In this document: piece after piece, positions 48,146 to 53,202 of the stretch
How the letters are laid out: each line of letters starts with the position of its first letter
Position numbering within the stretch: position 1 is the stretch's first letter
DNA from: Nannocystis pusilla
GTDB taxonomy: Bacteria > Myxococcota_A > Polyangia > Nannocystales > Nannocystaceae
DNA: 64,000 nt
Direction: 5' to 3'
Assembly: GCF_026626665.1 (NCBI RefSeq)
Contig: NZ_JAPNKE010000002.1
Coordinates: forward strand, 1,549,204 to 1,613,203
Made by a program: the position numbers and the translations under genes
Notes under the pieces: model-generated
The model's input: the letters and a program-made list of their open reading frames with translations, nothing else
Databases searched by the model: none
Told to the model about the DNA's origin: nothing

Positions 48146-49294
48146 TTAAGTCTTGCGGCCGGTCTTGTAGCGCGGGTTGCTGTCGTGCCACTCGAACGCG
48201 CCGCCCATCCACGCCCGCAGGGCGCGCAGGAACCGCTGCAGCTCGACGCTGGGGGCGGCCTGCAGCTCGCGGTGGCTGGCTTCGAAGTCGCGGACGAGGT
48301 CGTTGTGCAGCTGGACGGTGACCTCGGTCGCCTCGTCGATCGAGCAGCCGCGATCGGCCTTGACCTGCAGGACCATGTTGCACGGCGGCTTCGCGTCCTC
48401 GAGGTCCTTGGCCACCGAATAGAGGTCGTTGACGAGGACGACCGCGGTGCCGGCCAGGAACGCGGCGCGGCGGATCCGCGCGTCGTAGAAGAGCTCGGCG
48501 GGCAGGCGATAGCCGCCGATGACGTCGCACAGCGTCATCGAGGTGTAAAAGCTGTCGTGCTGGCGCGCGGCCAGGTACTTCCACGCGGGCGGGTACTCGC
48601 CGGTGTGCCGCCACGCCGCGTAGGCGCTCCACGACACGAACATGGCGAAGGTCGCGTAGCAGGTGCGCTGGACCTGCTCGTGCGTGGCGTAGCGGCCCAT
48701 GTGCTCGAGGCCCGAGCGCAGGGCGACGAGCACGCGCTCGGCGTCGATCGCCTGCTCGAGCGGGGCGCTGAACTCGCCGGCGCGCGGCAGCGGATCCATG
48801 GCCGCCATCGCCAGGACGAGGCGCGGCGGCAGCTGCTCCGGGACCGCCCCGAGCGCGCTGTCGTCGGCGTAGTAGTCGTCGGCGGCCCACCACGCGGCGT
48901 TCATCTTGGCGCCGATGAGCAGCCGATCGGGGTCGTCGCAATCGGCGTGGGTGAGCATCACCAGCCGGCCGAACCGGGTCTTGCGGATCTTGACGATCTC
49001 GTCGTCGTCGAAGCCGCACTCGCCCGCCCAGGCGGCGAGCCGATCGTCGACCTCGTCGGCCAGCGGCTCGTTGATGCGCTCGGTGATCGGGCAGTACAGC
49101 GGCGACCCGCTGCCGTCGCCCCACGACCGCCAGGCGTAGGCGGGATCGATCGCCGGCTGCGGCGGGTCGAGGTCGCCGGCGCGGGCCCGATTGAGCAGCT
49201 GCGCGAGGCGAGCGGCGTGCGTCCCCAGGCCGGTCGGTCCGGCGAGGAGGGCGGATACATCGTTCGGGTCCGTCTTGCGCTTGGCCTCAGTCAT
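48146..49294 (-). CDS. Class I terpene synthase, most likely 2-methylisoborneol synthase (the candidate encapsulin cargo).
   Basis: Asp-rich motif DDYYADD and NSE/DTE motif NDLYSVAKDLE; a Pro-rich, probably disordered N-terminal ~90 aa; immediately downstream of the GPP methyltransferase. Confidence 0.75.
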   Translation of the reverse strand: MTEAKRKTDPNDVSALLAGPTGLGTHAARLAQLLNRARAGDLDPPQPAIDPAYAWRSWGDGSGSPLYCPITERINEPLADEVDDRLAAWAGECGFDDDEIVKIRKTRFGRLVMLTHADCDDPDRLLIGAKMNAAWWAADDYYADDSALGAVPEQLPPRLVLAMAAMDPLPRAGEFSAPLEQAIDAERVLVALRSGLEHMGRYATHEQVQRTCYATFAMFVSWSAYAAWRHTGEYPPAWKYLAARQHDSFYTSMTLCDVIGGYRLPAELFYDARIRRAAFLAGTAVVLVNDLYSVAKDLEDAKPPCNMVLQVKADRGCSIDEATEVTVQLHNDLVRDFEASHRELQAAPSVELQRFLRALRAWMGGAFEWHDSNPRYKTGRKT

Positions 49295-49385
49295 CGCTCG
49301 CCTCTGTTGCAGCGGCCGCCGAGAACCGGCGGAAAATTGCGCAGGGCGGGAGGTATGATCATACCCCCCGCCGGTGCCGTCATGC

Positions 49386-50252
49386 TCAGCGGACGATGCG
49401 GTCCGCGACGATGAGGAGGTAGTGGAAGCTGCCCTCCTTGTAGGCCCGCAGGAACGGATCCTCGACGCCGGTGGCGACCGAGCAGCGGGTCCGCAGCTCC
49501 CAGTACGGGATCGTGTCGGGGGTCAGGTCGGTGACCTCGATCGGCACGAGGTTGTTGGCCGCCATCGCCTTGAAGTACTCGCTGCGCGGGTGGATGTTGC
49601 AGATGTACTTGGCGTCGATCTCGCTGACGGCGCGCGAGCGGCCGCCGGTGATGTCGTTGTAGCAGCCGGTGATGCAGACGTAGCGCCCGCCGTCCTTCAG
49701 CAGCCGCGAGAACTCGCCGTACAGCTTGAACAGGTCGACGTACATCGTGGTCTCGTTGGTCCAGATGGCGTCGATCGAGCCGGTCTCGAAGCCGGTGTCG
49801 AGCATGTTGCGGAAGTGGTACTTCAGCTTGTCGCCGTACCCGCGCTTGGCGGCCTGCTCGTTGGCGAAGCCGACCTGGTACTCCGAGATCGACACGCCGT
49901 CGACCTGGCACTTGAAGCGCTCGTGGGCCATGAGGCTGGTGCCGCCGCGGCCGGAGCCGGCGTCGAGCAGGCGGCTCTCGGGCTTGATCGGCCCGAGCTT
50001 CTTCAGCAGGTGCTCCGCCTGCGCGTGCTCGAGGCGGTGCAGCTCGCGGATGATCGCGTCGTCGCGCGCGGCCTCGGGCTGCTCCAGCACCGACCAATTG
50101 ACGGCGCCGATCCCGTAGTGGTGGTGGTAGTAGCCGTCGACGTGCCCGAGCAGCAGATTGACGGGGTCGTTCTGGTTGGTGTTCCAGTAGTTGGCGACCG
50201 ACTTCTGGTACTCGCTGCGCAGGACGCTATTGGCCGTGGTGGGCGTGTTCAT
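49386..50252 (-). CDS. Geranyl-diphosphate 2-C-methyltransferase (SAM-dependent).
   Basis: MNTPTTANSVLRSEYQKSVANYWNTNQNDPVNLLLGHVDGYYHHHYGIGAV…LLDAGSGRGGTSLM (SAM motif I). It is the classic partner of 2-MIB synthase. Confidence 0.8.
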   Translation of the reverse strand: MNTPTTANSVLRSEYQKSVANYWNTNQNDPVNLLLGHVDGYYHHHYGIGAVNWSVLEQPEAARDDAIIRELHRLEHAQAEHLLKKLGPIKPESRLLDAGSGRGGTSLMAHERFKCQVDGVSISEYQVGFANEQAAKRGYGDKLKYHFRNMLDTGFETGSIDAIWTNETTMYVDLFKLYGEFSRLLKDGGRYVCITGCYNDITGGRSRAVSEIDAKYICNIHPRSEYFKAMAANNLVPIEVTDLTPDTIPYWELRTRCSVATGVEDPFLRAYKEGSFHYLLIVADRIVR

Positions 50253-51724: not shown

Positions 51725-51804
51725 GTCATCGTCTCCAGGCTGGCATCACGGACGGAGGCGCCCCGGGCCGCGAGGACCGGAGCGCCGATGGGTGCGACGA
51801 GACG

Positions 51805-53202
51805 TCAGTCGGCGCGGCCGATCTCGACGCTCTCGAGGATGCCGAGCGCGTCCGGGATCTGGACGGCGGCAGAGTAGTAGAGGCTGACCAGGTACGAGAT
51901 GACCGCCTTCTCGTTGATGCCCATGAAGCGCACCGACAGGCTCGGCTCGATCTCGTCCGGGATGCCCTTGTGGTGCAGGCCGATGACGCCCTGGTTCTTC
52001 GCGCCGACGCGCATCAGCAGGATCGAGGTGGTGCGCGTGTCGGAGATCGGGATCTTGTTGCAGGGGAAGATCGGGACGCCGCGCCACGACGGCACGTGAT
52101 GGCCGCCCAGGTCGATCGGCGTCGGGTAGATGCCCGCGCGGTTGCACTCGTGGCCGAACGCCGCGATGGTCCGCGGGTGGGCGAGGAAGAAGGCCGGCTC
52201 CTTCCACACCAGCGCCAGCAGGTTGTCCATGTCGTCCGGCGTCGGCGGGCCGCTGCGGGTGTGGATCCGCTGCTTGAGGTCGGCGTTGTGAAGCAGGCCG
52301 AACTCGTGGTTGTTGATGAGCTCGTGCTCCTGGCGCTCCTTCAGCGCCTCGACGGTCAGGCGCAGCTGCTCCTGCGTCTGGTTCATCGGGTCGTTGAACA
52401 GGTCGGCCACGCGGGTGTGGACCTGCAGGACGGTCTGGGCGACGCTGAGCTCGAACTCCCGCGGCGAGGTCTCGTAGTCGACGAAGGTGCCGGGCAGCAC
52501 GGGCTCGCCCGTGTGGCCGGAGGCGACCTCGATCGCGGCCTGGCCGCTGTTGTCCTGCTTCTTCTGCGAGCGCGCCTTGAACTCGTCGACGTGCTTGCGC
52601 AGCGACGGGTGCTGGGCGACCAGCTCCTCGAAGGACGCCTGCGACAGCGTCAGGACGGTGCCGGCGGTCACCGCCTTGGCGGTGAAGTCCCAGTAGTCCT
52701 GCGACTCGAGGATCGCCTGGTACGAGTAATGGTCACCGTCGGCCAGGGTCTCGAGGACGCTCTCGTCGCCGTACTTGCCGGTGCCGATCTTGTTGACCTT
52801 GCCGTGGGCGATGAGGACCATCTCGTTGGCCTCGTTGCCCTTCTGGGTCAGGATGTCGCCCGCCTTGAACTCCTTCTGCACGAAGCGGCCGGCGAGCACA
52901 TTGAGCACCTCGAGGTCCTCGTAGCCGCGGAACAGCGGCAGCTCGGTCAGCTCCAGCGGCACGACCTGGATCTTGGCGCCGGTGTTGTAGAAGGTGACGC
53001 GGCCGTCGCCGACGGCGTAGCTCAGGCGACGATTGAGGCGGAAGACGCCGTTGACGTGCACCAGGGCAACAATTTGAGCAGCCAGCGGGACGAGATTCCC
53101 TGCATCTGCGGCGGGGACTTCGTCGTGGTGGCGAGCTGGCGCGCTGCAGCCGTCGAGAGGCTGGTCTGCTGATCATTTCCCGGCTTTCCTGCGATCGACA
53201 TG
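51805..53202 (-). CDS. Second Family-2B encapsulin shell paralog, with an apparent frame break near 53065 (GG vs GGG).
   Basis: The body of the protein aligns with the downstream paralog. The N-terminal [47 protein letters not shown] lies in another frame and joins [12 protein letters not shown]… if one G is added after CCCTGG. Confidence 0.65.

Follow-up and report, generated by a model that had tools for sequence, protein, structure and literature searches.

A probable two-component encapsulin shell for a 2-methylisoborneol operon in Nannocystis pusilla

Introduction

A four-gene cluster of the myxobacterium Nannocystis pusilla, located in a 64,000-nt stretch of contig NZ_JAPNKE010000002.1 (RefSeq assembly GCF_026626665.1, positions 1,549,204 to 1,613,203; hereafter the window), raises the question of whether the terpene cyclase that it encodes is packaged inside a protein shell and how the two shell-like proteins encoded beside it would share that task. 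The four genes lie co-directionally on the minus strand, from 53201 down to 48146, and encode two shell proteins (Enc1 and Enc2), a geranyl diphosphate (GPP) 2-C-methyltransferase, and a terpene cyclase. An initial annotation, made from the sequence without database searches, had proposed an encapsulated pathway for the odorant 2-methylisoborneol (2-MIB), with two cnb-like genes encoding Family 2B encapsulins.

Systems of this kind have been described before. A 2021 catalogue by Andreas and Giessen covers terpene-cyclase operons of Family 2B in which a C-methyltransferase and two shell genes occur together with the cargo motif GPTGLGT, including 114 in Proteobacteria. The encapsulin of Streptomyces griseus that carries 2-MIB synthase (2-MIBS) was solved in 2024 (Nat Commun, PMC11550324), and two-component shells have since been characterized from Streptomyces lydicus in 2025 (PMC12407261) and, for geosmin, from Myxococcus xanthus in 2026 (bioRxiv 10.64898/2026.07.21.739788). 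The cyanobacterial genes cnbA and cnbB were tied to compartments and 2-MIB retention in 2025 (PMC12159092), and the 2-MIB clusters of Nannocystis strains have been listed (Ahearne 2023). The GenBank and RefSeq names of these N. pusilla proteins are also those that the initial annotation proposed. The locus is therefore already known through public annotation and experimentally characterized close relatives, and is ordinary in that sense; a two-component shell with 2-MIBS cargo from a myxobacterium is a new instance rather than a new kind.

Assignment of the two shell proteins to Family 2B

The four translations were compared with NCBI curated equivalog models, for which the cut-off was 400 bits for each of the four, and Enc1 was analyzed throughout as a one-base-repaired translation. 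Both shell proteins matched the model for Family 2B encapsulin shells (NF041163, encap_f2b) over its full length, positions 1–450 (scores in Table 1). The SrpI-like HK97 domain (PF19307) was matched over the whole 254-position model by both proteins (450 and 442 bits), and residues of about 110–200 matched the cNMP_binding family (PF00027; 50.9 and 63.8 bits), so that the internal domain with a cyclic-nucleotide-binding fold (CBD) that distinguishes Family 2B from Family 2A is present in Enc1 and Enc2. Searches of the Protein Data Bank (PDB) returned end-to-end matches to three Family 2B shells solved by cryo-electron microscopy (cryo-EM), namely 9bhu from S. griseus, 9bje (S. lydicus Enc1), and 9bix (S. 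lydicus Enc2), at 573–633 bits (E ≤1e-171), and the HK97 halves additionally matched the Family 2A shells 6x8m and 8t6r at about 300–320 bits. The proposal that both cnb-like genes encode Family 2B shell proteins is thus supported at the sequence level by the curated models, by full-length homology to solved shells, and by the published work on such shells (PMC11550324, PMC12407261, bioRxiv 10.64898/2026.07.21.739788); the HK97-fold domain on which that proposal depends was detected in both proteins.

An AlphaFold2 model of Enc2, built from a low-diversity alignment of 24 sequences, had a mean predicted local distance difference test score (pLDDT) of 50.9, with confident values (71–88) confined to the CBD. 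The modeled CBD superposed on the CNB domains of CRP and PKA with a root-mean-square deviation of 2–3 Å. The structures 9bhu, 9bix, and 9bje were among the top Foldseek matches of this model, at template-modeling (TM) scores of about 0.2–0.37, and were left unused as evidence of fold. Ahead of the CBD, shell residues of about 55–95 are strongly conserved, GDGR and P-E-L-E-L-P being invariant in the shell-protein alignment (A2). This stretch is a candidate counterpart of the N-terminal metal-binding subdomain of Family 2B shells, whose coordinating residues are given in a figure (PMC11550324).

Given the CBD, the cnb-like proteins might instead be cyclic-nucleotide-responsive transcription regulators of the methyltransferase and cyclase genes, forming no shell, as the historical EshA/Crp annotation would have it. 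The Pfam cNMP_binding matches fit this alternative, and so do the names "Crp/Fnr family transcriptional regulator" and "CRP-like cAMP-binding protein", which many homologues in the databases still bear. However, the proteins are without a DNA-binding domain, their C-terminal 250 residues are the SrpI-like HK97 domain, the Arg needed to bind the cyclic phosphate is a Trp, the "Crp/Fnr"-named proteins of 9bix and 9bje are encapsulin shells by cryo-EM, and S. griseus EshA itself was reassigned by experiment (PMC11550324). A regulatory role has, in our estimate, almost no chance of being correct, and the labels "cNMP-binding" and "Crp/Fnr" on these shell genes are misleading.

Two matches to Rfam family RF02735, a Saccharopolyspora antisense small RNA (Sernc350), were recorded on the plus strand, antisense to the first ~500 nt of enc1 (52676–53163, 124 bits) and of enc2 (51183–51685, 89 bits), the gathering score being 50. 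Every Family 2B shell gene that was tested, at myxobacterial, cyanobacterial, and actinobacterial loci, likewise gave a match to this family on its antisense strand. Since the matches extend across three phyla, RF02735 seems to model the reverse complement of conserved coding sequence, and the two matches were read as a shadow of that sequence and not as evidence for a small RNA.

Enc1 and Enc2 as an inherited two-component pair

Two-component systems have been recognized by a pair of Family 2B shell genes lying within 10 kb of each other (PMC12407261); here the two genes are separated by 80 nt. The overall identity of Enc1 and Enc2 is 62%, with 50% in the CBD and higher values in the N-arm (68%) and the HK97 domain (70%). 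These are the values published for two-shell operons and were counted in favor of a two-component pair. Dutcher 2025 (PMC12407261) described two diagnostic motifs, the first reading TVWK in Enc1 and RRRK in Enc2 and the second lying in a luminal A-domain loop. The upstream gene of the window encodes LVWK at motif 1 (Enc1 type) and the downstream gene RR-RK (Enc2 type). At motif 2, Enc1 resembles the AVDFHGHSLP of S. lydicus Enc1 (Sl-Enc1), and Enc2 is in register with, though less close to, the GAELHGTDVR of Sl-Enc2. The motifs occur in the same gene order at six related Nannocystaceae loci, and each protein clusters with its counterparts from other Nannocystaceae rather than with the neighboring copy. 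Scores against the solved S. lydicus shells discriminate for Enc2 (612.8 bits to 9bix vs 572.6 to 9bje) and are effectively tied for Enc1 (633.3 bits to 9bje vs 632.1 to 9bix).

By their sequences, enc1 and enc2 are accordingly placed as an ancient, inherited Enc1/Enc2 pair. A recent tandem duplication of one shell gene was ruled out by the 62% identity, the diagnostic motifs, and the clustering by orthologue; of the "duplicated shell component" in the initial annotation, the two adjacent shell genes stand and the local duplication does not. In the cyanobacterial loci (L009-L013), cnbA and cnbB both carry an Enc2-like RR-RN at motif 1 and fall together in a neighbor-joining tree, and the cyanobacterial pair thus seems to have come from a separate duplication and not from the Enc1/Enc2 split of Myxococcota and Actinobacteria.

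For two-shell operons in general, Andreas and Giessen (2021) left open that the two proteins build separate homomeric shells. In both systems that have been tested, S. lydicus and M. xanthus, only one of the two subunits forms shells by itself and the shells obtained by co-expression are mixed, and an Arg that Enc2 carries at a three-fold pocket position (see below) would argue against trimers made of Enc2 only. Two separate shells are therefore considered very unlikely here, and a single mixed shell is preferred.

The terpene cyclase, its loading peptide, and the methyltransferase

The cyclase matched the curated model for Family 2 encapsulin cargo terpene cyclases (NF041167, f2_encap_cargo2) and PF19086 (105 bits). 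Its metal-binding motifs are as the initial annotation quoted them, the Asp-rich DDYYADD starting at residue 139 and the NSE motif NDLYSVAKDLE at residue 289. The best PDB match by sequence was S. coelicolor 2-MIBS (3v1v; E 4e-41, 32% identity), and a predicted structure with a predicted TM score (pTM) of 0.77 found its best fold match in another S. coelicolor 2-MIBS entry, 4la6, at a TM score of 0.89 normalized to the target. The enzymes of cyanobacteria are closer: the cyclase is 72–74% identical to cyanobacterial MIB synthases and the methyltransferase 77–78% identical to its cyanobacterial orthologues.

Ahead of the catalytic domain, which begins at about residue 51 in the AlphaFold model, the cyclase has an N-terminus of ~50 residues with pLDDT values of 37–54 over residues 1–50. 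This segment contains 10% Pro, 10% Gly, and 18% Ala, compared with 5, 5, and 14% in the remainder of the protein, and it is short beside the loading domain of about 120 residues in Streptomyces 2-MIBS (PMC11550324). It includes the motif GPTGLGTHAAR, present in 15 of 16 aligned orthologues (the exception being an N-terminally truncated open reading frame (ORF) call) and conserved across myxobacterial, cyanobacterial, and actinobacterial members. GPTGLGT is the published consensus for 2-MIBS-type cargo (PMC8346489), and mutation has established GPN/TGLGTSAAR as the peptide that loads the geosmin synthase GeoA into the M. xanthus shell (bioRxiv 10.64898/2026.07.21.739788). Because the motif and the low-confidence N-terminus agree with the mutational work on S. 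griseus and M. xanthus, the cyclase was assigned as the cargo, and its N-terminus is predicted to be a real but compact loading domain. The "Pro-rich, probably disordered" N-terminus of the initial annotation holds with respect to low pLDDT and the loading motif, but the segment is short and only moderately rich in Pro.

Among orthologues, the synthase of Sorangium sp. So ce134 carries two copies of the loading motif in its N-terminus, SPAGLGTSAARL and RPIGLGTSAAGL, and two orthologues from Polyangia/Nannocystaceae metagenome-assembled genomes have insertions of 40–50 residues after the motif, so that the length of the loading domain varies widely within one order.

The methyltransferase matched NF041943 (GPPMT_Stmyces) and, over residues 12–286, the crystallized GPP methyltransferases 4f84 (322 bits) and 3vc1 (314.5 bits). 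It has no cargo-loading extension; its N-terminal overhang is 13 residues and is without a loading motif.

As to the product, the Pseudanabaena genes mtf and mtc are reported to have sufficed for 2-MIB on heterologous expression (PMC10580876). Another C11 homomonoterpene, such as 2-methylenebornane or 2-methyl-2-bornene, could instead be the main product: identity to the crystallized 2-MIBS is low, 4zq8, an uncharacterized terpene synthase of S. lydicus, has a score nearly as high, and such compounds are known side products of 2-MIBS enzymes (PMC11550324). This has little chance of being the case, given the closeness to the cyanobacterial MIB synthases with the same methyltransferase–cyclase linkage and the 2-methylisoborneol synthase names that the Joint Genome Institute (JGI) gives to many close homologues; moreover, Nannocystis is documented as a 2-MIB producer (Dickschat 2007, as cited by a later paper), and the cluster of Nannocystis punicea FL3 has been called a 2-MIB cluster (Ahearne 2023). 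2-MIB is accordingly retained as the predicted product.

The CBD-fold insert and the cargo pocket

Both CBDs carry a Trp (W171 in Enc1) in place of the phosphate-binding Arg, equivalent to R82 of Escherichia coli CAP and W176 of the S. griseus shell (Sg), and Trp occupies the W176 position in 225 of 225 aligned shell homologues. The S. griseus and M. xanthus shells do not bind cAMP, and this exchange is the feature with which that has been associated (PMC11550324; bioRxiv 10.64898/2026.07.21.739788), so the initial annotation, in calling the role of the insert unknown, is in part out of date.

At the three-fold pocket of the S. griseus shell, L264, L285, F430, and Y441 lie under the cargo density (Andreas and Giessen, PMC11550324). 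The equivalents of L264, L285, and Y441 are kept in both Enc1 and Enc2. The F430 equivalent is kept in Enc1 (F426; 51926–51928), and the same position in Enc2 is R432 (50429–50431, in VRRMG). In a survey of 225 aligned shell proteins, mostly from Myxococcota and with a regular-expression pre-check, all 126 Enc1-type sequences (xVWK at motif 1) had an aromatic residue at this position (Phe in 120, Tyr in 6), and 95 of the 99 Enc2-type sequences (RRxK) had a non-aromatic one (Arg in 63, Lys in 21, Asn in 4, His in 3, Gln in 2, and Ala and Cys in 1 each; Phe in the other 4). Phe is present at this position in actinobacterial Enc2 and in both cyanobacterial copies.

The change from Phe to Arg or Lys in Myxococcota Enc2, of which there is no mention in the text of the 2026 preprint (bioRxiv 10.64898/2026.07.21.739788), may be a new observation. 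It suggests, as a working hypothesis, a division of labor between the subunits in Myxococcota. A possible though doubtful extension is that Myxococcota Enc2 is a dedicated subunit that neither binds cargo nor self-assembles, with the Enc2:Enc1 ratio setting cargo load and pore state. If true, the loss of the pocket Phe would explain why shells are formed by S. lydicus Enc2, which retains the Phe, but not by M. xanthus Enc2 (MxEnc2) on its own.

A frame break in enc1

The enc1 gene is not an intact ORF. One G is missing at 53061–53062, where TGG GTG has become TGG TG directly after codon 47 (TGG, 53063–53061), and the first 47 codons are therefore in a different frame from the remaining 418, which run from GTG 53061. 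The initial annotation had silently read through this break, taking enc1 as intact, and had placed the end of the locus at 53202, one base past the enc1 ATG at 53201. The GG run is GGG in all relatives, and the orthologues are intact in five aligned loci (L001-L004 and L008). Strain RBIL2 is 99% identical across enc1, and the single missing G is the sole oddity in the alignment with five relatives. The truncated Enc1 annotated in RefSeq (WP_276603213.1; 419 aa, MVHVNG...) matches the window exactly, and Enc1 is an intact protein of 465 aa in three other N. pusilla assemblies.

The neighboring lhr helicase gene (43520–48025, minus strand) is likewise broken into three frame segments, by a loss of 2 bp near 45289 and of 1 bp near 44671; N. 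punicea, N. bainbridge, and RBIL2 have it as one uninterrupted ORF of about 1490 aa, so these indels, which lie within the same 10 kb as the enc1 break, are specific to the window and are probably assembly errors. Reads for N. pusilla Na p29T came from an Oxford Nanopore Technologies Flongle (R9.4.1) and were assembled with Flye (Ahearne 2023), and the window most likely derives from that R9.4.1-only assembly, since its accession numbers belong to the same block as those of the other Nannocystis strains of that study. Because of the R9.4.1-only reads, the intact relatives, and the two further indels in lhr, the enc1 break is highly likely to be a Nanopore homopolymer error in the assembly rather than biology.

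If the break were real, the strain would make either no Enc1 or an Enc1 of 418 or 419 aa without its N-arm, re-initiated at GTG 53061 or CTG 53064, and its shell would be built of Enc2 only or be without the N-arms that close the two-fold pores. The deletion is, after all, in the deposited sequence, the 419-aa product is annotated in RefSeq, and operon decay occurs in the genus, as the Nannocystis radixulma cluster appears genuinely degraded. A small but real chance is assigned to this alternative, against which stand the loss of a single homopolymer base in what is most likely a Nanopore-only assembly, the further frame-breaking indels in a housekeeping gene, the 47 upstream codons that are still protein-identical to RBIL2, the intact gene in the other N. 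pusilla assemblies, and the finding that no Shine-Dalgarno-like sequence precedes GTG 53061. Programmed frameshifting at the break was rejected, as there is no slippery heptamer of the form X XXY YYZ and the frame is uninterrupted at this site in every relative. Should the frameshift be real, the N. pusilla type strain would provide a naturally occurring test case for a shell built of Enc2 only or without N-arms; under the preferred reading of an assembly error, indels in the type-strain assembly are the reason why the shell protein is annotated in RefSeq with a truncated N-terminus.

Two relatives have irregularities of their own. In the N. radixulma locus (L004, 8012–11071), the methyltransferase gene is absent, enc2 lacks its first ~346 codons, and the cyclase lacks its first ~26 and with them the loading motif; the locus looks like a degraded 2-MIB cluster, consistent with the "differing organization" described for strain NCELM (Ahearne 2023). 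The PacBio assembly of RBIL2 (L003) has GGG reduced to GG in the cyclase N-terminus (window position 49185) and a gap of ~25–30 nt in the methyltransferase (49610–49645), and owing to its own frame-breaking indels its methyltransferase is annotated in GenBank as fragments of 59, 187, and 201 aa.

Gene layout and flanking regions

The G+C content of the window is about 70–75%, so that mechanical ORF lists are crowded; third-position GC marks out the four minus-strand genes of the operon (Table 1). Intergenic gaps within it measure 68–91 nt, and three of the four starts have a sequence resembling a ribosome-binding site (AAGGA, GGAG, or GAGG) ahead of them. The N. pusilla GenBank entries MCY1005351.1, MCY1005350.1, and MCY1005349 have exactly the sequences of Enc2, the methyltransferase, and the cyclase, respectively, and the order enc1-enc2-methyltransferase-cyclase is common to six related loci (L001-L003 and L006-L008). 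A tblastn search of the window for further encapsulin or terpene genes found none.

Table 1. Features of the N. pusilla locus, with positions in the 64,000-nt window.
Feature	Coordinates	Strand	Evidence
enc1, Family 2B shell, Enc1 type, 465 aa after one-base repair	51805..53201	-	NF041163 749.8 bits; 9bje 633 bits; LVWK and motif 2
enc2, Family 2B shell, Enc2 type, 467 aa	50321..51724	-	NF041163 742.9 bits; 9bix 612.8 bits; RR-RK and motif 2
Geranyl diphosphate 2-C-methyltransferase, 288 aa	49386..50252	-	NF041943 495.8 bits, residues 14-286; 4f84, 3vc1
2-Methylisoborneol-synthase-type class I terpene cyclase, 382 aa, predicted cargo	48146..49294	-	NF041167 462.9 bits; 3v1v, 4la6
Predicted cargo-loading peptide GPTGLGTHAAR, synthase residues 19-29	49208..49240	-	Motif position, orthologue conservation, published consensus
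enc1 frameshift site	53060..53063	-	Alignment A1, blastn indel list, RefSeq WP_276603213.1
Candidate sigma-70-type promoter, TTGACG, 18 nt, TAACCT	53304..53333	-	Conserved block in four Nannocystis genomes

The flanking genes are unrelated to the operon. An Lhr-type helicase and an Fpg/Nei glycosylase are encoded downstream, and a secreted protein with DUF4215 repeats is encoded upstream beyond a non-coding stretch of ~1 kb (53202–54206), which has the lowest G+C of the neighborhood (about 0.65). The operon itself has a G+C of 0.65–0.70, somewhat below its flanks (0.72–0.77). The intergenic region diverges among the four Nannocystis genomes around the conserved TTGACG-18-TAACCT block, which lies ~100 nt upstream of the enc1 ATG and is put forward as a candidate promoter. 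A consensus promoter scan of 47900–54300 returned no promoter, including at this block, and a terminator scan of the same interval returned one weak plus-strand terminator, below the expectation from shuffled sequence.

Comparison with characterized systems

The S. griseus system (Sg Enc/EshA, 9bhu; PMC11550324) shares a shell of Family 2B whose CBD-fold insert is external and has Trp in place of the cAMP-binding Arg, a 2-MIBS cargo with a Gly/Ala/Pro-rich N-terminal domain carrying GPxGxGT, and a GPP methyltransferase in the cluster; 9bhu matches the two window shell proteins over their full length at 588–619 bits. It differs in its single shell gene, in the gene order (shell, synthase, methyltransferase), and in a loading domain more than twice as long as the one here (about 120 vs about 50 residues), and the catalytic domains are distant, at about 32% identity to the Streptomyces type. 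S. lydicus (9bje and 9bix; Dutcher 2025, PMC12407261) has adjacent Enc1 and Enc2 genes with both diagnostic motifs, but belongs to another cargo operon type and keeps the pocket Phe in Sl-Enc2 where the window Enc2 has Arg.

A myxobacterial counterpart is found in M. xanthus, with MxEnc1, MxEnc2, and GeoA (Fazal 2026, bioRxiv 10.64898/2026.07.21.739788), a two-component Family 2B shell for an odorant terpene cyclase, in which no cAMP binding was seen and whose loading peptide is virtually identical to the one in the window. Its cargo, however, is a two-domain sesquiterpene cyclase with two internal or C-terminal peptides, in contrast to the single-domain C11 cyclase with one N-terminal peptide found here; the M. 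xanthus system has no methyltransferase, and its shell genes are located downstream of the gene for the cargo.

The cyanobacterial operon cnbA-mtf-mtc-cnbB (Giglio 2011; Dayarathne 2025, PMC12159092) has the closest enzymes, in the same methyltransferase-to-synthase order, and two Family 2B shell genes, whose products have been associated with intracellular compartments and with an effect on the retention of 2-MIB (PMC12159092). There, unlike here, the shell genes flank the enzyme genes instead of preceding them, and both copies have the Enc2-like RR-RN. The methyltransferase-to-synthase order resembles that of cyanobacteria and Pseudonocardiales, whereas Streptomyces and Actinomadura have the reverse. 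The likening of the locus to the "cnb-mtf-mibs logic" of actinobacteria in the initial annotation is corrected on this point of gene order.

A model for encapsulated 2-MIB synthesis

The locus is very probably the N. pusilla 2-MIB operon, with its cyclase packaged in a two-subunit Family 2B shell. This reading, which was also the core of the initial annotation, is carried by the curated equivalog matches of all four genes, the homology to solved shells, and the literature on related systems; the gene content, family membership, subunit types, loading motif, Arg-to-Trp exchange, and synteny in relatives were observed directly.

Shell assembly, subunit mixing, cargo loading, pore behavior, and product are modeled on the characterized homologues. 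In this model, the methyltransferase, free in the cytoplasm, would convert GPP and S-adenosylmethionine to 2-methyl-GPP. Enc1 and Enc2 would co-assemble into a mixed T=1 Family 2B shell, a 60-mer of about 27 nm, and would capture the cyclase via its short, flexible N-terminal domain, with GPTGLGTHAAR docking in a hydrophobic luminal pocket at the three-fold axes. The substrate 2-methyl-GPP would enter by the large two-fold pores under the external CBD-fold domains and be turned by the cyclase into 2-MIB, which would then diffuse out. The CBD-fold inserts, with Trp in place of Arg, would not sense cAMP, and mixing of Enc2 with Enc1 may permit closure of the two-fold pores by the N-arms, by analogy with M. 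xanthus.

Several points weigh against this model. In N. pusilla, the shell is predicted from its genes. Given the poor Enc2 model outside the CBD, support for the shell fold comes from homology, and the Arg at the F430 position of Enc2 means that some three-fold sites might not bind cargo. The operon boundaries are provisional, as neither a terminator nor a consensus promoter emerged from the scans. The cyclase is only 32% identical to a crystallized 2-MIBS, and the product assignment draws on indirectly validated cyanobacterial orthologues and the linked GPP methyltransferase. Finally, a genuine enc1 mutation in the sequenced culture keeps the same small chance as above.

Implications

The locus unites features so far seen apart, namely the 2-MIBS cargo of the single-component S. 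griseus system and the Enc1/Enc2 shell known with another cargo in S. lydicus and with geosmin synthase in M. xanthus. Its significance beyond correct annotation is small, and it provides a clean case of an encapsulated odorant pathway in a myxobacterium. With its unusually compact loading domain of ~50 residues, it would be a reasonable candidate for studying a two-component 2-MIBS shell.

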